DNA of 64,000 nucleotides from Nitrospirae bacterium GWF2_44_13. GTDB lineage: Bacteria; Nitrospirota; Thermodesulfovibrionia; Thermodesulfovibrionales; UBA1546. This document shows, piece after piece, positions 3,317 to 63,644 of this stretch. Made by a program: the position numbers and the translations under genes. Location: NCBI GenBank assembly GCA_001805105.1, contig MHEE01000012.1, positions 25,590 to 89,589 of the forward strand. The letters run 5' to 3'. Below the pieces are notes generated by a model. The model was given only the letters and a program-made list of their open reading frames with translations, had not been told where the DNA came from and did no database searches. Each line of letters begins with the position of its first letter. The first letter of the stretch is position 1.

Positions 3317-3389
3317 TTCAGTGTCAGTATTCAGTGTCAATTATCAGTGTCAGTCTTTTAACTGTTTACCTTCACTGTTGACTGACACT
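3317..3389. repeat. inverted heptamer-array element, CAGTGTC/GACACTG family (intergenic)
   Basis: Left arm TTCAGTGTCAGTATTCAGTGTCAATTATCAGTGTCAG, spacer CTTTTAA, right arm with CACTGTTGACTGACACT. Same family as 25441-25497. Confidence 0.6.
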
Positions 3390-8541: not shown

Positions 8542-11500
8542 TTATGACTTGTGATATTCCTGGATGGATTTTATGCTTATATTTTTCTTGCGGAGCATAT
8601 CTATCGCATTGACCACTGCCTTTGCTCCAGAAACAGTCGTAGTATAAGGCACCCTGTACTGGAGCGCGCTATGCCTTATTGAAAAGGAATCCCTCTGAGC
8701 CTGTGCATCGCTGACTGTATTAATAATGAAATTCACTTCCTTGTTTTTGATTAAATCCACGATATGAGGCCTTCCTTCATTCACCTTATTTATTACTTCA
8801 ACTTCTATTCCTTTGCCGCTGAGATGCTCTGCAGTGCCGCGGGTCGCTATCACCTCAAAACCCATGGCGTGGAGTTTCTTCACAATATCACATATCCCGT
8901 CCTTGTCTTCATCCCTGACGCTTATCACAATCTTACCAGACACAGGTATCCTGTTACTGGATGATAACTGAGCCTTTGCATATGCAATACCGAAATCCTC
9001 GTCTATGCCCATCACTTCTCCTGTGGATTTCATCTCAGGGCCGAGAATTGTATCAACACCGCTGAACCTGTCAAATGGGAACACGGCCTCTTTAACGGCA
9101 ACGTGCTTTATCTCCTTTTCAGTTGTCAGCCCTAGTTCCTTTAATGTTTTTCCGAGCATTGCCTTTGCAGCAAGTTTTGCCAGTGGAACGCCTGTTGCCT
9201 TGCTCACATAAGGTATGGTCCTTGACGCTCTTGGATTTACCTCAAGTATGTATATCTCGTTATCCTTGACTGCGAACTGAATATTCATAAGCCCTATGAC
9301 ATTGAGCTCGCGCGCCAAAGCCTTTGTCTGCTTTTTAATCTCAGCAACAATATCGTTATTCAGAGAATAAGGCGGCAGGGAGCATGCCGAATCACCTGAA
9401 TGTATGCCTGCCTCTTCGATATGTTCCATAACACCGCCGACAATTACATCAACTCCGTCTGAAATAGCATCAACATCCACCTCAACAGCGCCGGACAGAT
9501 ATTTATCAATGAGAACAGGATGCTCCGATGACGCCTTTACAGCCCTTTCCATGTAATCAAGAAGTGAACTCTCATCATAGACAATCTCCATAGCCCTTCC
9601 TCCAAGCACATAAGAAGGCCTCACCATAACAGGATACCCTATCTTCATCGCAATCACTACGGCATCTTGAGGAGACATGGCAGTGTCGCTCTCCGCCTGC
9701 TTGAGATTGAGTTTATGGAGAAGTTCTTTGAATCTCCTCCTGTCTTCTGCGCTGTCTATTGAGTCAGGCGAAGTGCCGAGAATCCTTACGCCCTCTTTTT
9801 CAAGAGGCACCGCCAGTTTTAACGGAGTCTGGCCTCCGAACTGCACTATGATGCCTTCCGGTTTTTCAGCCTCAATAATACTCAGCACATCCTCTATTGT
9901 CAGCGGCTCAAAATATAACCTGTCGGCAGTGTCATAGTCAGTGCTGACTGTCTCAGGATTACAGTTGACCATTATAGTCTCGTAACCAAGCTCCTTCAAA
10001 GCAAAGACTGCATGAACGCAGCAGTAATCAAATTCAATTCCCTGCCCTATCCTGTTAGGGCCGGAGCCGAGGATAATTACCTTTTTGCGCTCAGCGGGAT
10101 TGATTTCGGATTCAACTGATGCATGGTTCTTTTCATCCTGTATCTTGTATCCTGCATCCTGTATCCTGTAAAACGGTTTTTCATACGTTGAATACATATA
10201 CGGAGTATATGCCGCAAATTCCGCTGCGCATGTATCAACCATTTTATAGACAGGTTTTATACTGGATTCATTTCTCAGCTTTCTTATCTCCGCCTCTGTC
10301 TTTCCTGCAAGCTTGGCAATACGCCTGTCAGAGAAGCCGTATTCTTTTGCATCCCGCAATAAATCAGGGGCAAGAGATGCATGATGCATGATGCATGATG
10401 CATCTCTTTTTTTATCCTGTATCTTGTATCCTGCATCCTGTATCTTTTCTTCCATCTCCACAATCTGCCTTATGTTATTCAGGAACCACGGGTCAATCCA
10501 TGTGAGTTCATAAATCTCGTTAACAGACATTCCGTTCCTCATAGCCTGCGCAATATACCAGAGCCTGTCTGCATTAGGCATCTTGAGTTTAGCTTTAAGT
10601 TCTGCTGTGCTTACATCAATTTCTTCAAAACCGTAACTTCCAATCTCAAGGCTCCTCATCGCCTTCTGCAAAGATTCTTTAAAAGTTCTGCCTATAGACA
10701 TAACCTCTCCAACAGATTTCATCTGCGTTGTGAGCGTGGAATCAGCCGCTGGAAATTTTTCAAATGCAAACCTCGGAACCTTTGTCACAACATAATCAAT
10801 CGCAGGTTCAAAGGATGCAGGCGTTTCCCTTGTTATATCATTTGGTATTTCTTCAAGCGTAAGCCCCACTGCAAGCTTTGCGGCAATCTTTGCTATGGGA
10901 AATCCTGTTGCCTTGCTTGCAAGAGCCGATGACCTTGAAACTCGAGGATTCATTTCTATAACGGACATCCTGCCATCTTTCGGATTCAATGCAAACTGGA
11001 TATTCGAACCGCCGGTATCAACTCCTATTTCCCTGATGATTGCTATCGATGCATCGCGCATCCGCTGATATTCCTTGTCTGTCAGGGTCTGTGCGGGCGC
11101 AACTGTGATGGAATCTCCGGTATGAACTCCCATCGGATCAAAATTTTCTATGGAACAGATGATAACGACATTGTCCTTCATATCACGCATCACCTCAAGC
11201 TCATATTCCTTCCATCCGATAACTGATTCTTCCACAAGCACCTGATGAACAGGACTGAGCTTCAGCCCATTGTCAAGAAGCTCCGTGTATTCTTCCATGT
11301 TATATGCAATGCCGCTTCCTGTTCCTCCGAGAGTGAATGAGGGGCGTAATATTGCCGGAAAGCCGATATGTTCAATCGCATCCATCCCTTTTTTCAGGTT
11401 CATGACGGCAGCGCTCTTCGGAACCTCAAGCCCGATTTTTTTCATCGCCTCTTTGAAAAGCTCCCTGTCTTCAGCCTTTTTTATCGCATGAAGTTTTGCG

Positions 11501-12961: not shown

Positions 12962-14255
12962 ACACCTTTCCCTTGCATATCGTCATTACCGGCATTCCCT
13001 TCAATATCCAGCCGTCAAAAGGCGTGTTCCTGCCTTTTGAAACAAATCTTTCTGCCTCAACTTTGAATTTTTTATTCGCATCAACCATAACAATATCGGC
13101 ATCAGAGCCAATCTTAAGCGTTCCTTTGTTTATGCCCAAGATTCCTGCGGGCTTCACTGCCATTTTCTCAACAAGCTGCGGCATAGTTAAAACACCTTCA
13201 TGCACAAGCCTCAGACTCAGGCTCAACGCTGTTTCAAGGCCTGATATTCCGGAAGGGGCGCGGTCAAATTCCCGCAGTTTTTCATCCCTGTGATGCGGCG
13301 CATGGTCTGTTGCTATGACATCAATCGTGCCGTCTTTCAGCCCCTGCTTAATTGCATTCACATCTTTATCTGTCCTTAACGGCGGATTCACTTTTGCATT
13401 TGTGTTATATCCTTCAACATTATTCTCTGTAATGCTGAAGTAATGCGGGCATGTTTCTGCAGTTACATTTATTCCTCTTTCCTTAGCGTCTCTGATTATT
13501 CTTACAGAGCCTTCTGTTGAAACATGCGCTATGTGAAGCCTTCCCCTGGCAAGTTTTGCAAGCGAAATGTCCCTGCTTATCATTATCTCTTCTGCTTCAG
13601 AAGGTATCCCCTTTAATCCGAGGGTCAATGACAACAGCCCTTCGTTCATCACACCGCCTTCGGAAAGGCCTATATCTTCGCAATGAGAGATTATCGGGAC
13701 CTTGAAGGCCCTTGAATATTCAAGCGCCCTTCTCATAATAAGGCTGCTCATGACAGGGGTTCCGTCATCTGAAAAAGCGACACAGCCTTCCGAATACATA
13801 ATGCCCATCTCTGCAAGCTCTTCGCCTTTCTGCCCCTTTGTTATCGCGCCAATCGGATAGACAGTGCATGCACCTTCCTGAATCGCCTTCCTTATAATAA
13901 AATCCGTAACGCTTGAATTGTCATTCACAGGGTTTGTATTCGGCATGGCGCAGACTGTTGTGAAACCGCCTTTAACGGCAGCCATGCTCCCTGTTCGTAT
14001 CGTTTCCTTGTATTCAAATCCCGGTTCTCTAAGGTGTGTATGCATGTCTATAAGTCCGGGCAGAACGTATAAGCCGGAAGCATCAATAATATCGCCACCA
14101 GATGCACGATTTTTTATTTTTTTATCTTGCATCTTGTATCTTGCATCTTGTATCTTGATTTCCTTTATTTTTCCCTCTTCAATTAATATATCCCCAATCC
14201 CATCTATTCCCTGTGATGGGTCTGTTATGTGTCCATTCTTAATTAATATTTTCAC
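12954..14255 (-). CDS. pyrC: dihydroorotase
   Basis: DMHTHLREPG metal-binding motif and ATDHAPH. Contains an in-frame repeat-derived insert (KIQDARYKMQDKKIKNRAS). Confidence 0.93.
   Translation of the reverse strand: MKILIKNGHITDPSQGIDGIGDILIEEGKIKEIKIQDARYKMQDKKIKNRASGGDIIDASGLYVLPGLIDMHTHLREPGFEYKETIRTGSMAAVKGGFTTVCAMPNTNPVNDNSSVTDFIIRKAIQEGACTVYPIGAITKGQKGEELAEMGIMYSEGCVAFSDDGTPVMSSLIMRRALEYSRAFKVPIISHCEDIGLSEGGVMNEGLLSLTLGLKGIPSEAEEIMISRDISLAKLARGRLHIAHVSTEGSVRIIRDAKERGINVTAETCPHYFSITENNVEGYNTNAKVNPPLRTDKDVNAIKQGLKDGTIDVIATDHAPHHRDEKLREFDRAPSGISGLETALSLSLRLVHEGVLTMPQLVEKMAVKPAGILGINKGTLKIGSDADIVMVDANKKFKVEAERFVSKGRNTPFDGWILKGMPVMTICKGKVYE
14101..14158. repeat. paired heptamer-array element (GATGCAY / ATCTTGY variant) inside pyrC
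   Basis: GATGCACGAT, a T-rich spacer, then ATCTTGC ATCTTGT ATCTTGC ATCTTGT ATCTTGA. Confidence 0.75.
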
Positions 14256-20459: not shown

Positions 20460-21924
20460 CCAGCTTCCTTACCCTGAGCTTAACGCCTAATTCATCCGCT
20501 ATCTTCCTGCACTTCTCAACATCAACGCCTTCCATTTCTACAACAGTAGCCTGAACATCAGGAATATATTTTTTTGATTCTTTTATGAATGCTAGGACCT
20601 CATGAAACGCATTCTTAAAATCAGGCGCGCATATCCTGTCGTAAACCTTCTCATCCTGTGCATCAAGGCTGACAGAGATGACATCCACGAAACCTTTTAA
20701 TTCAGGAAGTATGTTCCGGCGGTTTATAATATTGCCGTGCCCGTTTGTATTAATCCTGACCCTGCCGCCTCTTTCTTTTATCCACCGGGCAATATTTTTA
20801 ACTATTTCAAACCTGAGAAACGGCTCGCCGTAACCGCAGAAAACAATCTCTTTATATTGAACAGGGTCGCCTATTGCCGCCTTAAGTTCTTCCTCAGTAG
20901 GTTCAGAAGAAAGCCTGAGGTTATGCCCCTTCACATAGTCGCTATGAAACCTCACACAGAACGAGCACTTGTTTGTGCATCTGTTCGTTATATTGAGATA
21001 AAGGCTGTCTCGTATCTTATAGGTTATCTCCCCCTGCTGAATGGACTTTCCTATCCTGAAAAGCCGCCTTGCATTGAGTGTCGTAATCCTTGCGATATCT
21101 TCAAGGCTTACCCCCCTCGTCTCAGCTATTTTTTCAGCGGTATTGACCATAAAAGCAGGTTCATTCCTTCTGCCCCTGAATGGTTCAGGCGTGAGATATG
21201 GAGCGTCAGTCTCTATGAGGAGATAATCATCAGGAATCACCTCTGCTGTCTCACGTAATTTGCCTGCATTCTTAAATGTCACCGGCCCCGCTATGGATAT
21301 GTAAAGCCCCATCTCCATAGCCTTTTCCGCCATATCCATGTCTCCTGAGAAGCAGTGCAGAACTCCCCTGTTTATCCCTGAATCTCCGAGTATTTCAAGC
21401 GTATCTTTTTTTGCCTCCCTGCTGTGTATGATTACCGGCAGTGCAAGTTCTTTTGCAAGAAGCAGCTGCTTTTTAAAAACCTCTTTCTGAATATCTCTTG
21501 GTGAGTTATCGTAATGATAATCAAGTCCTGTTTCGCCGATTGCAACAACCTTGGGAAGCGAAGATGCATGATGCATGATGCATGATGCATGGTTTTTTAA
21601 TTCTGTATCCTGTATCCTGTATTTAGTTCCCCATGCCTTTATCTGTTCGTATATTTCCTCTGTAAAATCCTTTGCATCATGAGGATGTATGCCGACTGAC
21701 GAGTAAATGAAATCATATTTTTCAGAAAGCCTTAGGCTCCCGCTATTGCCTTTCATATCAGAGCCGACTGTAATAACAGCTTCTATGCCTGCGTCCCTTG
21801 CCCTTTGGATAACTTTATCCCTGTCCTCATCAAATTCGGTCATCTCGATATGACAATGGGTGTCAATGAAAGTGACGAGTGGCGGCTGTTTTTTACGCAC
21901 CGAATTTTTTGAGACGCAATGCAT
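20446..21924 (-). CDS. TatD-family metal hydrolase fused to a TatD-associated radical SAM domain
   Basis: N-terminal TatD motifs (IDTHCH, GETGLDYHY, HSREA, ETDAPYL). The C-terminal roughly 200 aa carry CTNKCSFC (CxxxCxxC) and a GYGEP glycine motif. In-frame repeat insert [20 protein letters not shown]. Confidence 0.85.
   Translation of the reverse strand: MHCVSKNSVRKKQPPLVTFIDTHCHIEMTEFDEDRDKVIQRARDAGIEAVITVGSDMKGNSGSLRLSEKYDFIYSSVGIHPHDAKDFTEEIYEQIKAWGTKYRIQDTELKNHASCIMHHASSLPKVVAIGETGLDYHYDNSPRDIQKEVFKKQLLLAKELALPVIIHSREAKKDTLEILGDSGINRGVLHCFSGDMDMAEKAMEMGLYISIAGPVTFKNAGKLRETAEVIPDDYLLIETDAPYLTPEPFRGRRNEPAFMVNTAEKIAETRGVSLEDIARITTLNARRLFRIGKSIQQGEITYKIRDSLYLNITNRCTNKCSFCVRFHSDYVKGHNLRLSSEPTEEELKAAIGDPVQYKEIVFCGYGEPFLRFEIVKNIARWIKERGGRVRINTNGHGNIINRRNILPELKGFVDVISVSLDAQDEKVYDRICAPDFKNAFHEVLAFIKESKKYIPDVQATVVEMEGVDVEKCRKIADELGVKLRVRKLDVVG
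21563..21620. repeat. paired heptamer-array element (GATGCAT / ATCCTGT family) inside tatD-rSAM
   Basis: (GATGCAT)x4, spacer GGTTTTTTA, then ATTCTGT ATCCTGT ATCCTGT. Confidence 0.8.
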
Positions 21925-23218: not shown

Positions 23219-23854
23219 TCATTTATTAATAAGTTTCTTTAGCGCTAAGCCCGATTTCTCCACAATATCACTATGCAGGCTTCTTCCGTGTGCATCCATC
23301 GTCACTATCGCAGGAAAATTCTCCACCTCCAGCAGCCACATCGCCTCAGGAACACCAAACTCTTCGAGCTTCCAGACATCAACAACCCTTTTTACCCTGT
23401 CAGCAAGATACGCTGCTGCGCCCCCGATGGTATGGAAATATACACAGCCATTTTTTTTCATTGCATCCAGAGTGCGCTCGCACATGCCGCCCTTTCCCAT
23501 AATGCCCCTGATTCCGTACGAAGATATTATCCTGTGCTCATACGTCTCAACCCTTATGCTTGTCGTAGGCCCCGACGCAATAATCTTATAGCCGCTATCA
23601 GATTTTTTGACTATAGGCCCGCAATGATAGAAAACCGTCCCGCTGAGATTAAAAGGAATATCCTTCTTTGACGGCCTCTCGTAGAAGAGAAACTTATGTA
23701 TCTTATCCCTGCCGGTTACTATCATGCCGTTTATTAAAACCACATCGCCGACATTAAGTCCCGTGACATCTTTTTTCGATAATGGCAGATTTATTATCTT
23801 TGCTTTTTTACCTGAAACCTGTGACCCGAAACCTGTAACCTGTTTTTCTACCAT
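23219..23854 (-). CDS. class I (Fe-S) fumarate hydratase, beta subunit
   Basis: GPTTS and MGKGG motifs. I chose the ATG at 23854 because GAGGAAGG lies 6-7 nt upstream and the overlap with the alpha subunit is small. The longest ORF starts at 23887. Confidence 0.88.
   Translation of the reverse strand: MVEKQVTGFGSQVSGKKAKIINLPLSKKDVTGLNVGDVVLINGMIVTGRDKIHKFLFYERPSKKDIPFNLSGTVFYHCGPIVKKSDSGYKIIASGPTTSIRVETYEHRIISSYGIRGIMGKGGMCERTLDAMKKNGCVYFHTIGGAAAYLADRVKRVVDVWKLEEFGVPEAMWLLEVENFPAIVTMDAHGRSLHSDIVEKSGLALKKLINK
23810..23844. repeat. heptanucleotide tandem array, ACCYGWR family, 5 units, at the 5' end of the fumarase beta gene
   Basis: ACCTGAA ACCTGTG ACCCGAA ACCTGTA ACCTGTT, which encodes QVTGFGSQVSG. 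Confidence 0.65.
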
Positions 23855-24806: not shown

Positions 24807-25418
24807 TTACTTTTTAGGTGTTTCTTTCTTGGGTTCTTCTTTCTTGGGTTCTTCTTTCTTGGAAAGGCCTGCAATCGCATCCTTGTTCACGTCAATCTTA
24901 TATGACTTCTTAAGATTTTCAACGTAACCGTCAAAAACTTCCTTCTGTTTCTGTGCGGTCAGCCGCTGGGCCAGCATATCCCTTATCTTCTCAAACTCAA
25001 TTGTCTTGCCCTGCACCACGAAATCAGTCTTGTTCTTTTCATAGAAGTCCCTTATGTCTTTATCGGACAGCTTTGCCTTATCCTCTATCTCCTTTTCAAG
25101 AAGCGCACTTATGAGAATCAGCTTCTGGGAATCTGCAACTTTTTTAAGATATGTGGCATCCCTGTCAAGCCCTTTCTTCTTAGCTTCCTGATAGAGAAGC
25201 TCTTTTTTGATGAGTTCATCAATCAGCCTCGCTATTCCTTCCTCACCCTCAAACATCTTCTGCGCAAACGGCGGAAGGGCTTCAATCTCCTTCTTGAGGT
25301 CTTCCTTTGTTATGGTAACGCCGTTTATCTTTACAAGATACTGTCCTTTCTGTTCTTCTTTCTTTGCGCAGCCAAAGACAAGAAAAACAGTTAATACAAA
25401 AAATGCAATCTTTTTCAT
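24807..25418 (-). CDS. SurA N-terminal-domain-like chaperone lipoprotein
   Basis: Lipobox LVFGC, then a helical chaperone-like region. The C-terminal (KKEEP)n tail is encoded by a 15-bp tandem repeat. Confidence 0.6.
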   Translation of the reverse strand: MKKIAFFVLTVFLVFGCAKKEEQKGQYLVKINGVTITKEDLKKEIEALPPFAQKMFEGEEGIARLIDELIKKELLYQEAKKKGLDRDATYLKKVADSQKLILISALLEKEIEDKAKLSDKDIRDFYEKNKTDFVVQGKTIEFEKIRDMLAQRLTAQKQKEVFDGYVENLKKSYKIDVNKDAIAGLSKKEEPKKEEPKKETPKK

Positions 25419-30634: not shown

Positions 30635-30667
30635 GCTGATAGCTGATCGCTGAAGGCTGAAGCTGAG
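30635..30667. repeat. heptanucleotide tandem array, GCTGAWR family (intergenic)
   Basis: GCTGATA GCTGATC GCTGAAG GCTGAAG CTGAG. Confidence 0.65.
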
Positions 30668-46622: not shown

Positions 46623-47360
46623 ATGTTTAGCATTCGCATGAGGGCGTCAAAGAGCGGCATCCACATCTCCGGCGCTGAAGGAATATGCCAAAAATCTGAA
46701 ATATCAAAGGCCTGCGGTGAATACATAAAAAGGGCTTTGACCCATTCCAGGGGCAAGCCTGACGAGATTGTTATCACAATTGAAAAAATAAAGCAGAAGC
46801 CAAAAACAATTTCATTGCTGCCTGTTGTCACGCTCAAGTGCAATTCTCCCGCGGAAGCAAAAAAAATCATAACACAGAAATCAGAATCACTTGGCATTTC
46901 AAAAAAAGCCATTGACAACGCATTCGTTGTTCTTAATTCGAAAAAGACAATGCGGGGCGCATCACTAATACTTGCAAAATCAGGGAAGAGGGTTGAGCCG
47001 GACAGAAAAAGAGGCGTAAGAGTATCAAGAATGGGAATTAAAAAATCAACTGAAAAAAATCTATCAGAAAAACTGTCAGGAGCAAAGATAAATACAACCC
47101 GCCTGATGCGGGTGAAAGAGGCATTAATGCTTGCATCAAAGGCAGCATCCTGGCCTGATGTTATCGCAGAGGCCTGCATCTCCGATGACCCCGATTATAC
47201 TACAGGGTACATCGCATCAAAGGAATTAGGTTATCTGAGGATACCGAATATCAAGAGAGGGAAAAAAATGCACGGAGGCAGGGTATTCTTTATCAGGGAA
47301 ACCGCTGATATTGCCGGATTAATCTCTTATTTGGAAAGAAAACCTGCTATCATTATATAA
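46623..47360 (+). CDS. bioW: 6-carboxyhexanoate--CoA ligase (pimeloyl-CoA synthetase)
   Basis: MFSIRMRASK...HISGAE start is typical of BioW. It lies immediately downstream of bioB. Confidence 0.85.
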   Translation: MFSIRMRASKSGIHISGAEGICQKSEISKACGEYIKRALTHSRGKPDEIVITIEKIKQKPKTISLLPVVTLKCNSPAEAKKIITQKSESLGISKKAIDNAFVVLNSKKTMRGASLILAKSGKRVEPDRKRGVRVSRMGIKKSTEKNLSEKLSGAKINTTRLMRVKEALMLASKAASWPDVIAEACISDDPDYTTGYIASKELGYLRIPNIKRGKKMHGGRVFFIRETADIAGLISYLERKPAIII

Positions 47361-47414: not shown

Positions 47415-48422
47415 ATGAAACAGACTATATTTCTTATAGGTAATCCCGCAGCAGGCAGGAATGCTCTGAGGAAAATCAACGAAGCAGCAGCAATCATTAA
47501 AAACAAGGGACACAATGTTGAGATGCTGCTTACCGGAAAAAGAGGGGATGCAGAGTCATTTGCAAGGGAAATCGTTCAGAAGTCAGAAGTCAGAAGTCAG
47601 AAACCCAAGATTCAAGATGCAGGATACAAAATTCAGGATAATCATGCATCGTGCATCGTGCATCATGCATCGGAGGACTCCGAACTCCGAACTCCGAACT
47701 CCGAACTTCTAATCATCGCGGCAGGCGGTGATGGAACATACAATGAGGTGATTAACGGCATTGCCTGCACCAACATACCAATGGCAATACTCCCGCTCGG
47801 AACGACAAATGTCCTTGCTAAGGAGCTTGGCATATCGAAATCTATAGAAACCGCCGTCAGCATAGCACTGGAGAGAAACAGCCGTCACGTTTCTTTGGGA
47901 AGAATAACCATTGAAGCAAGCTCTGAGATGCCTCAAAATTCCCGTTACTTCTGCCTGATGGCAGGTATTGGATATGACGCTGAAACAGTTTACGGAATAA
48001 AAGATGAGATAAAAAGATACTCAGGGAAAGGAGCATATATCTTAAGCGGGCTAAAGACACTGCTTAGATGGGCGCCTGATAAATTGACCTTCACCATGAA
48101 CGGCGTATCCTGCGAAGGATACTCGGCAATAATCTGCAAGACATCAAAATATGCGGGAAATTTCAGAATTGCGCCTGATGCAGATATAAAGAACGCCGAT
48201 TTTTATACCTTCATTATGCACGGTAAAAAGCGGCTGGACATTTTCAGATATGTCTCAGGGATAGTTATGGAAAAACACCTAAAATGTACAGACATAACAT
48301 ATAGGAAAATAGAGAACATGGCAGTCAAGGGTAAAGCGCACATACAAATAGACGGAGATTATTTCGGAATGACGCCGGCAAAAATTGAGGTTGTACCCGA
48401 GGCGCTGAGGCTTATATATTAG
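47415..48422 (+). CDS. diacylglycerol/lipid kinase family protein (YegS/BmrU-like)
   Basis: GNPAAG start, AAGGDGT and LPLGTTN motifs. Carries a roughly 45-aa in-frame repeat-derived insert just before AAGGDGT. Confidence 0.85.
   Translation: MKQTIFLIGNPAAGRNALRKINEAAAIIKNKGHNVEMLLTGKRGDAESFAREIVQKSEVRSQKPKIQDAGYKIQDNHASCIVHHASEDSELRTPNSELLIIAAGGDGTYNEVINGIACTNIPMAILPLGTTNVLAKELGISKSIETAVSIALERNSRHVSLGRITIEASSEMPQNSRYFCLMAGIGYDAETVYGIKDEIKRYSGKGAYILSGLKTLLRWAPDKLTFTMNGVSCEGYSAIICKTSKYAGNFRIAPDADIKNADFYTFIMHGKKRLDIFRYVSGIVMEKHLKCTDITYRKIENMAVKGKAHIQIDGDYFGMTPAKIEVVPEALRLIY
47576..47709. repeat. nested composite of four heptamer arrays inside the lipid kinase gene
   Basis: Outer left (TCAGAAG)x3-4, inner TNCAGGA-type units (reverse complement of ATCCTGY), inner (ATGCATC/GTGCATC)x4, and outer right GGAGGAC (TCCGAAC)x4 TTC. 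Confidence 0.8.
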
Positions 48423-63451: not shown

Positions 63452-63486
63452 ATTGCTGCCTGCTGAATACTGATTGCTGATTACTT
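63452..63486. repeat. heptanucleotide tandem array related to the GCTGAWN family (intergenic, just upstream of the tRNAs)
   Basis: ATTGCTG CCTGCTG AATACTG ATTGCTG ATTACTT. Confidence 0.55.
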
Positions 63487-63490
63487 GTTT

Positions 63491-63564
63491 TGGGGAGTCG
63501 TCCAACGGCAGGACGGCAGCCTCTGGAGCTGTTTATAGGGGTTCGAATCCTCTCTCCCCAGCCA
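63491..63564 (+). tRNA. tRNA-Gln (anticodon CUG)
   Basis: Hand-folded cloverleaf. Acceptor TGGGGAG/CTCCCCA, D stem GTCC/GGAC, anticodon loop CU-CUG-GA, T arm AGGGG-TTCGAAT-CCTCT, encoded CCA. 74 nt. Confidence 0.9.
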
Positions 63565-63566
63565 TT

Positions 63567-63644
63567 GGTCCCATCGTCTAGCCCGGTCTAGGACGTGGCC
63601 CTCTCAAGGCTAAAACACGGGTTCGAATCCCGTTGGGACCGCCA
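63567..63644 (+). tRNA. tRNA-Glu (anticodon CUC)
   Basis: Hand-folded cloverleaf. Acceptor GGTCCCA/TGGGACC, D stem GTCT/GGAC, anticodon loop CU-CUC-AA, T arm ACGGG-TTCGAAT-CCCGT, encoded CCA. 78 nt, starting 2 nt after tRNA-Gln. Confidence 0.9.

Follow-up and report, generated by a model that had tools for sequence, protein, structure and literature searches.

Hairpin repeats that lie in-frame within housekeeping genes have their classic example in the Rickettsia palindromic elements (RPEs), which Ogata et al. are said to have described in 2000 under the title 'Selfish DNA in protein-coding genes of Rickettsia'. Very small, mobile-looking repeats that are nested in other repeats, tandem heptamers and hairpins among them, were reportedly found in Nostoc by Elhai et al. 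in 2008. The subject here is a tract of 134 bases, made up of four arrays of 7-nt units, that lies in-frame in a lipid kinase gene of Nitrospirae bacterium GWF2_44_13, an uncultured Nitrospirota bacterium (contig MHEE01000012.1, positions 25,590 to 89,589; this whole stretch of 64,000 nt is called the window and supplies the coordinates below, and loci from other assemblies are cited by our own handles, such as L012). At a probability of about 0.7, the tract is a small hairpin-type repeat of 7-nt units, carried as a selfish or neutral, translated passenger in a disordered loop of the enzyme.

Like RPEs, the elements described here are short, dispersed, capable of forming hairpins and in-frame in housekeeping genes, where they add extra peptides at tolerated surface positions and are inherited across species. 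RPEs differ in being ~100-150 bp long, in having a fixed consensus and in belonging to another phylum, whereas the present elements are arrays of 7-nt units; unit slippage and nesting are not known for RPEs. With units and length that differ, the relation to RPEs is one of analogy and not of membership, and no kinship in sequence is expected. The small dispersed repeats of Nostoc differ from the present ones in being elements with a 21-27 nt unit, cyanobacterial and mostly non-coding.

Heptanucleotides are given as the commonest long simple-sequence repeats (LSSRs) in repeat-rich prokaryotes, and slippage at 7 nt has been proposed to be favoured by a 7-nt polymerase contact (Mrazek 2007, as relayed in PMC4679880). 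The TAACTGA repeats of Beggiatoaceae and cyanobacteria are intergenic, and their orientation has been argued to be limited by stop codons (PMC4679880). In Xanthomonas, GGGAATC arrays form 70-75 convergent (inverted) pairs able to fold into stem-loops, and most of the heptamer repeats lie between genes, with fewer than expected on the coding strand of open reading frames (ORFs) (PMC4692102). The present arrays share with the heptamers of Xanthomonas and with the short tandemly repeated repetitive sequences (STRRs) of cyanobacteria the 7-nt unit, the small number of copies per array, genome-wide dispersal and, as argued for TAACTGA, a stop-codon-limited orientation, and with LSSRs and STRRs of heptanucleotides in general the occurrence of head-to-tail units beyond chance and the variation of unit number between related genomes. 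They are unlike the Xanthomonas and cyanobacterial heptamers in that ~80% of copies lie inside ORFs of core enzymes (among the matches listed, see below), in that their arms consist of different, mismatch-tuned units, and in forming composites. The present elements join two known themes, heptamer-array hairpins and residence in coding sequence, and add to them composites and visible frame-shifting dynamics. A full-text search of the open-access literature found no description of such elements in Nitrospirota or Thermodesulfovibrio, and the family of heptamer-array hairpins in housekeeping genes of this lineage is large and apparently undescribed.

The host gene, ORF 47415..48422 on the plus strand of a window with 43% G+C, encodes a 335-residue lipid kinase of the YegS/BmrU/DgkB family. 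It matches the Pfam domains DAGK_cat (PF00781, 9e-26) and YegS_C (PF19279, 1e-15; the C-terminal NAD-kinase-like beta-sandwich) and is related by sequence to the solved structures of DgkB (PDB 2qv7, E=1e-20), BmrU and YegS. Its nucleotide-binding motif IIAAGGDGT, residues 100-108 by our own count, is invariant across 44 homologues. The tract (window 47576-47709, codons 54-99) is translated, and LIIAAGGDGT comes directly after the tract peptide, which places the tract just before the GGDGT motif. An earlier sequence-only reading had proposed four heptamer arrays of about 134 nt inserted in-frame in a lipid kinase gene; inspection and Tandem Repeats Finder bear out the arrays, the frame and the length of the tract, and the peptide then given is an exact match to the translation of ORF 47415..48422. 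As a measure of the insertion the 134 nt were too generous, the net gain over the orthologue L012 being 114 nt, or 38 codons. The arrays reported by Tandem Repeats Finder, followed by the parts of the tract as read from the sequence, are:

47576-47602, array 1, TCAGAAG x3.9, 100% match
47606-47640, array 2, degenerate, period 7/14
47641-47672, array 3, ATGCATC/GTGCATC x4.6
47677-47707, array 4, TCCGAAC x4.4, 100% match
47576..47602, plus strand, outer-left array, (TCAGAAG) x3.9, perfect copies, encoding SEVRSQK
47603..47609, plus strand, left linker ACCCAAG, part of the sub-family 5' end AGTCAG(A/C)AAC(Y)NAAG
47610..47643, plus strand, inner-left arm, ATTCAAG ATGCAGG ATACAAA ATTCAGG, then the loop ATAATC
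47644..47671, plus strand, inner-right arm, ATGCATC GTGCATC GTGCATC ATGCATC, encoding HASCIVHHA
47672..47678, plus strand, right linker GGAGGAC, the conserved sub-family 3' end, peptide SED
47679..47709, plus strand, outer-right array, (TCCGAAC) x4 plus TTC, perfect copies, encoding SELRTPNSEL

The two inner arms are inverted repeats of one another: GATGCAG agrees with the reverse complement of ATGCATC (GATGCAT) at 6/7 positions, giving a stem with 6 pairs and 1 mismatch per unit. They belong to a family whose consensus on the coding strand is (GATRCAR)n-GAT-A-rich-ATC-(RTGCATC)n. The sequence-only reading had rightly linked the inner pair to arrays in carB at 10376-10444, (GATGCAT)4-CTCTTTTTTT-(ATCCTGY)4, but the inner pair's own inverted-repeat nature had gone unnoticed; the claim that both elements have the same orientation relative to their genes also holds, because the carB arrays lie on the strand opposite to carB. 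Besides the kinase copy the window contains five others, four in-frame in core enzymes and one after gyrA, with right arms of 1-4 units:

10369..10450, minus strand, in-frame in carB; orthologous copy in other metagenome-assembled genomes (MAGs; L048)
10100..10176, minus strand, second carB copy, with five left-arm units and a single right-arm unit
14090..14162, minus strand, in a dihydroorotase-like (pyrC-like) amidohydrolase gene, KIQDARYKMQDKK
21555..21630, minus strand, in a TatD/radical-SAM fusion gene; orthologous copies with other unit numbers in L033, L089 and L100
5923..5993, minus strand, intergenic, directly 3' of the gyrA stop codon and oriented as the flanking genes

A scan for the inner pair, with one genome per species, returned at least 100 matches in about 30 MAGs, mostly Nitrospirota/Thermodesulfovibrionales. 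Of the 101 matches listed, 68 are found within open frames of 150 codons or more that run in the sense direction and a further 15 within sense frames of 60-149 codons, while long antisense frames hold 5, so that about 80% (83/101) are inside sense ORFs, in the stop-free orientation. The host genes (carB, the pyrC-like and tatD-like genes, the kinase and a gene of the BcrAD family) are unrelated to each other, and their frames are unbroken. The arm sequences themselves suggest how this is achieved. A perfect left arm, (GATGCAT)n, contains TGA, and three or more heptamers run through all three frames; the recurring mismatch, G instead of T, therefore removes the TGA of the perfect palindrome and keeps the element readable on the coding strand. 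In the kinase tract the sense frame in use is without a stop, while each of the three antisense frames contains stops, and it is because of such stops that one orientation alone survives inside genes. The tatD and carB copies occupy orthologous positions in several MAGs with differing unit numbers, and are therefore inherited vertically while drifting in length.

No copy of the inner family was found among 2.9 million viral contigs, which therefore gives no support for carriage by phages, and in an Rfam scan of the whole window only two tRNAs were matched, the arrays remaining without a match. MAGs labelled Dadabacteria also contain the inner family (L052, L059, L063, L064 and L066), as do MAGs of other phyla (L035 and L091, Anaerolineae; L030 and L062, Absconditabacterales; L038, Nanoarchaeota). 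Its presence in Dadabacteria, in four independent MAGs, is likely to be real; the Anaerolineae, Absconditabacterales and Nanoarchaeota occurrences may be mis-binned contigs. The arms are also rich in recognition-like sequences, such as the palindrome ATGCAT, GCATC/GATGC and GGATG. The HIP1 sequence of cyanobacteria has been discussed in connection with restriction-modification or methylation.

The abundance of 7-nt periodicity was measured by counting lag matches per 21 positions at thresholds of 15-17, with other periods and shuffled sequences as controls. At 17/21 matches the window has 10 period-7 regions, against 0-1 at periods 3-13 and 0-1 in shuffles; at thresholds 15-16 there are 11-12, against 0-2 at periods 5, 6, 8 and 9 and 0-1 in shuffles. 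Seven is the only short period enriched in the window, period 14 being enriched too as its double. The window together with related loci (783 kb) has 221 period-7 arrays, compared with 0-18 at periods 5-11, a figure that is biased upward in that these loci were picked for one heptamer family.

The kinase copy has a relative that shares much of its composite structure. Compared with an index of words from 5.8 billion proteins, the insert peptide gave one candidate only, of no use as a census, which led to a sister composite in a gene of the BcrAD/HGD family on the same 252-kb contig, outside the window (k141_1395861; L013 10140-10260); an exhaustive HMMER search with the 48-residue insert peptide gave 4 matches, the query being too short and repetitive for a survey of host proteins. 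The left part of the sister copy reads AGTCAGCAACTAAAG ATTCAAG ATGCAGG ATACAGG ATTCAGG ATAATC, and the right part, in L013, reads (ATGCATC)3 AGAGGAC TCCGAAC TCAAAAC TCTAAAC TCTGG. Its linkers, its left units with T and its short loop are those of the kinase tract; of outer units it has one on the left (L013) and four degenerate ones on the right (L115).

The linkers recur more widely and define a sub-family. The left linker is found as AACTAAAG in L013/L115, as AACTTGAG in L097 and as GAACTCAAG in L118, and ATGCATC(R)GAGGAC is found also in L013/L115, L114 and L118, L116 having ATGCATCTGAAGAT. In L118, which is the same bcrAD loop in another MAG, the sub-family ends (AAC-YNAAG running into ATTCAAG, and ATGCATC-RGAGGAC) stand beside another left array, (NATGCGT)3, and the homologous junction lacks a right array; in L097 they stand beside (AGTCAAA)4, on the left side only. 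Had the outer arrays co-occurred nowhere else, the sequence-only reading would have been refuted by its own test; it is not, for in another gene of the same genome (L013/L115) the inner sub-family comes with the same outer units and linkers, and in L097 and L094/L108, from further genomes, it does so in part.

A metagenome scan for the junction of inner and outer arrays returned the kinase of a relative (L114) and L115. The latter is a second sample's version of the bcrAD locus, on the reverse strand, and is identical to L013 over 13.8 kb save for one ATGCATC unit. With four units, L115 has an intact ORF of 1454 residues; with three, L013 is split into 80 + 1384 residues, and the downstream ORF uses as its start an AUG within the array, 12 nt beyond AGGA. 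For this single case there is a small residual chance of an assembly error. The 21-nt differences among the kinase alleles show the same process of unit change after selection for frame. Many homologues of the BcrAD family (gene length ~1450 residues) are called as proteins of 200-450 residues, even on contigs of 0.1-3 Mb, which suggests that the gene is frequently split in assemblies, possibly at repeat arrays.

The history of the kinase site can be followed through its orthologues, of which 44 were aligned and DNA was fetched for eight. A hotspot for insertions extends from helix 2 to the GGDGT strand, and the alignment bears out the tract as an in-frame addition, with orthologues that have no element, the inner pair only, an outer-type pair only or the composite. 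Orthologues of 290-297 residues lack the loop. L008, 90% identical in amino acids elsewhere, has no array at the site and a weak CAAATCY periodicity. L012 (297 residues), the shortest close orthologue, has the minimal form GTCAGGAAGTCAGAAG-C-AAACTCG; without the element it carries TCAGGAAGTCAGAAG at the outer-left position, and at the site there are already some two units resembling TCAGAAG, together with one of AACTC. L007 and L011 have the inner pair only, and L010 an outer-type pair only, (AGTTNNG)5-loop-(NNNAACT)4, a true inverted repeat of about -40 kcal/mol on either strand. The composite is found in the window, L009, L114 and P0004. The inner and outer modules are thus separable among orthologues, as the earlier idea of a modular build-up had it.

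Composite alleles differ by exactly three units (21 nt) at the same codon positions. Array 4 of L009 has one unit against four in the window, a 21-nt difference that keeps the frame, and in allele P0122 array 3 is short of exactly 3 units (CIVHHAS), with one left. The outer-left array of L009/L114 is CCGGAAG plus 3 units. A second hypervariable loop, after LGKIT (residues ~166-170; alignment columns ~170-220), also bears heptamer elements in relatives, and in L116 this loop has another composite with the same inner sub-family and outer units GTCARGY and TCATCAC. Peptides of the LGKIT loop such as PPLSPLNKGGIKGG resemble translated C-run/G-run hairpins, and C-run/G-run palindromes (e.g. CCCTCCCCCCTCGAGGGGGAGGGG) adjoin heptamer arrays in L016 (~2036-2090) and L033 (~1300-1360); the palindromes appear to represent, in these genomes, a second class of hairpin repeats, one with which the PP..KGG insert peptides agree.

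An AlphaFold2 model of the kinase made with the 44-sequence alignment has a mean predicted local distance difference test score (pLDDT) of 81.8 and a predicted template modelling score (pTM) of 0.82, and in Foldseek it matches DgkB 2qv7 (E=2e-25, TM 0.72/0.79) as well as YegS 2jgr and 2bon. Residues 62-95, between the helix 45-61 and the strand 98-104 that leads into GGDGT, have pLDDT <50 and are without secondary structure, while the remainder of the protein is modelled with confidence. On this prediction the insert forms a disordered loop on the surface that the protein tolerates, which is the question that the sequence-only reading had wanted a model to answer.

The standing of the outer arrays is different from that of the inner pair. 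The sequence-only reading had noted that the outer units are 4/7 identical to each other's reverse complement with two further positions differing by transitions, and this is correct: the sense strand can form 4 Watson-Crick pairs with 2 A.C mismatches per unit, and the antisense strand 6/7 pairs, 2 of them G.U. When the composite is folded, the inner arms pair in every fold, but the outer arms pair only in the antisense RNA, through G.U. The antisense RNA of the kinase composite folds at -55.5 kcal/mol (z = -5.0), single inner elements fold at -18 to -34 kcal/mol and the copy adjacent to gyrA at -28 kcal/mol (z = -4.5); with DNA parameters the kinase composite gives a weak signal of -16 and -18.9 kcal/mol. 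A DNA-level cruciform of the whole composite was rejected, since the inner arms alone pair and outer pairing needs G.U. A role as intrinsic terminator was likewise rejected on inspecting the sequence: on neither strand is the stem followed by a T-run, the T-/A-rich stretch being the loop. Because each array repeats one unit, the effective test of outer complementarity is one 7-nt comparison, for which pairing of at least 6/7 has a chance of ~0.013 per register and strand, or ~0.17 over 14 trials by our own calculation; complementarity alone is therefore weak evidence.

Nor is nesting a general property of the family. In the 35-nt flanks of 105 inner elements complementarity was no higher than in shuffled pairings, with the kinase tract as the strongest outlier and the bcrAD copy second, and nesting as a general rule was rejected since flank complementarity is not above the control. 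The outer copies are perfect and their numbers differ between close relatives (right 4 vs 1; left 4 vs 1 in the sister copy), so that the outer arrays are better explained by amplification of single heptamers in place. The earlier suggestion of one element inside another or of modular build-up stands as far as separable modules go; nesting is exceptional, and local build-up by amplification has somewhat the better of true nesting, which keeps a substantial share of the odds. The outer-type hairpin of the L010 group and the proto-units of L012 leave room for an older hairpin at the site beforehand. Distal units vary on both arms of the inner-family copies.

A mechanism can be proposed that would join these observations. 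The core is one copy of the dispersed family (GATRCAR)n-GAT-A-rich-ATC-(RTGCATC)n, and belongs to the sub-family with the conserved ends 5' AGTCAG-AAC-YNAAG and 3' RGAGGAC-TCCGAAC, whose terminal heptamers may have been amplified by replication slippage into two perfect 4-unit arrays. Such arrays quickly gain and lose 7-nt units, and in genes whose function is needed the only changes to last would be those with a net effect that leaves the frame intact, typically 3 units or 21 nt. The element would be tolerated by virtue of a stop-free sense strand and of landing, or surviving, in loops only, slippage adjusting its length and selection keeping its frame. Spread to new sites might be due to a hairpin-recognising transposase or to gene conversion between copies. 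A general process of slippage and template switching may make part of the architecture, particular sequences such as the inner family then spreading.

Several observations weigh against the tract being a copy of a dispersed passenger. No transposase, target-site duplication or fixed termini were found in the 64-kb window plus fragments. Comparison of empty and filled bcrAD sites (L117 vs L115/L118) shows a short native stretch replaced and no clean insertion. In bioW, an in-frame insert of ~80 nt near the N-terminus of BioW, (CAGTAGT-type)n-A-rich-(AACTCCG)3, is present in L114 (~900-990) and absent from the window (46653-46662); it replaces ~14 native bases and has no target-site duplication. 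Many other heptamer families with unrelated units form inverted array pairs with A/T-rich loops, and because of these the model of one mobile sequence falls short and a process that generates the architecture is hinted at. The kinase tract is also invariant within its species, 20 contigs giving one protein.

The same comparisons bear on the relation to known small mobile elements. Like repetitive extragenic palindromic (REP) sequences, REPINs and MITEs (transposable elements of miniature size with inverted repeats), the present elements are of non-coding size, hairpin-forming, multi-copy and non-autonomous in appearance (PMC3116915, PMC10969869), and some MITEs, such as those of Coxiella, insert in-frame (PMC3116915, PMC10969869). 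They are unlike MITEs in that the bcrAD and bioW sites compared show neither terminal inverted repeats of fixed extent nor a target-site duplication, and unlike both groups in that the arms are tandem arrays of variable length, with no linked RAYT or transposase found within 64 kb plus fragments.

A purely local origin, by 7-nt slippage and intrastrand template switching without any mobile element, is the alternative that survives best, though it is unlikely; the likeness between copies would then be due to convergence or gene conversion. It would account well for outer arrays of perfect copies whose number varies between close relatives, for the proto-units already present in the element-free L012, for the dozens of unrelated heptamer units found in inverted pairs, for the lack of target-site duplications and fixed termini at the empty and filled sites compared and for the lack of matches in the viral contigs. 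It does not easily account for the inner family, in which the same units, the GAT-A(6-8)-ATC loop and the arm order recur at at least 100 unrelated sites in MAGs with labels of several phyla, or for sub-family-specific linkers that recur at four different sites. Convergence is implausible because units, loop, arm order and linkers agree in such detail.

Slightly less probable still is a functional hairpin or array, acting as a phase-variation switch, a regulatory RNA or DNA structure or a translational restart cassette; a translation pause, an mRNA stabiliser, an antisense RNA and a protein-binding array are variants that share the same low odds. In the restart variant, (AGGAU)n, the A-rich spacer and (AUGCAUC)n would give a Shine-Dalgarno-like site and an AUG in all three frames. 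The bcrAD pair fits such a role, a one-unit change, the sole difference in 13.8 kb, splitting a gene of 1454 residues and leaving a downstream AUG 12 nt after AGGA, and several insertions, e.g. those in tatD and carB, are kept across species. Against this, the hosts are housekeeping enzymes (carB, pyrC, the kinase), for which an OFF state would be harmful, and orthologues freely do without the tract. The antisense fold of the kinase tract is strong, but its z-score is inflated by the repetition of one unit within each array, the pairing itself has the chance of ~0.17 noted above, the folds with DNA parameters are weak and the arrays have no Rfam match in the window. Antisense folds are more stable than sense folds in 87/101 copies (among the matches listed); this asymmetry, real as it is in the sample, is partly built into the search pattern, which allowed transitions on one arm only, and it was dropped as evidence for an antisense RNA. 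The elements resemble contingency loci in that, in one case, a one-unit change shifts the frame and truncates the gene (L013 vs L115), and are unlike them in residing in core metabolic genes, not in surface or restriction genes, with persistent alleles set apart by multiples that preserve the frame, a pattern more like purifying selection than like an active switch.

That the encoded peptide is itself the selected feature, for example as a His/Cys-rich metal-binding or regulatory loop beside GGDGT, is very improbable. The tract does encode HASCIVHHAS directly before the GGDGT strand, but unrelated enzymes have the same peptide in unrelated places, the insert of close orthologues is either wholly different or missing, the model predicts disorder and the peptide sequence is dictated by the heptamer repeat. 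An assembly or sequencing artefact has a negligible probability: short tandem repeats can be assembled wrongly, and the single-unit difference between L013 and L115 could in principle be such an error, but the tract is no artefact because the identical 335-residue protein is found on 20 contigs from independent projects and assemblers (ENA, NCBI, JGI and Logan; DNA identity to the window 99.8-100% for the 6 that were fetched), and related alleles are present in many further assemblies. The locus L002, considered as a polymorphic insertion, was rejected as a scaffold gap of Ns.

A bolder proposal, that these are a new class of element in Nitrospirota of the Thermodesulfovibrionales type and possibly in Dadabacteria and others, namely 7-nt-array hairpins that prefer coding sequence, are made by a dedicated process and form frame-switchable loci, is rather unlikely. 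If it were true, a hairpin-specific enzyme would insert beside AGTCAG-like sites without duplication, or there would be a replication or template-switch mechanism with 7-nt steps; the (AGGAU)n-A-rich-(AUGCAUC)n core would then provide each frame with a ribosome-binding site and a start codon, in this way allowing split genes still to be expressed.

Essential genes are expected to be purged of tandem repeats with a unit length not divisible by three, yet here such repeats are common in them, and within 64 kb carB (twice), the pyrC-like gene, the tatD-like gene and the lipid kinase carry heptamer repeats. Preferring the passenger reading, we see in them a natural system in which the accommodation by proteins of selfish or mutationally generated hairpin DNA, through loop insertions and 21-nt steps, can be read from metagenomes. 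The mutation rate of the arrays is also readable, one unit change having occurred against zero substitutions in 13.8 kb. Such loci can address whether loop insertions in enzymes arise in this way in free-living bacteria, as RPEs have suggested for Rickettsia. A practical consequence is that in MAG annotations genes are split by the tracts, and that orthologues look more divergent than they are.

Other heptamer arrays in the window, with units TCAGCYW, NNCAGGT and TCAGNNN, lie at 918-955 (aroE-like), 23810-23843 (fumarase beta-like), 30635-30666 and 63463-63485 (both intergenic), the last just upstream of two tRNA genes at 63491-63641. Some arrays of other units are without an obvious inverted partner. 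Two tandem repeats have a longer unit, a 13-nt repeat, TTCAGTGTCAGTA x2.9, at 3317-3354 and a perfect 15-nt repeat, TTCTTTCTTGGGTTC x2.7, at 24822-24862, which by its coordinates lies at the 3' end of the minus-strand ORF 24807..25418.

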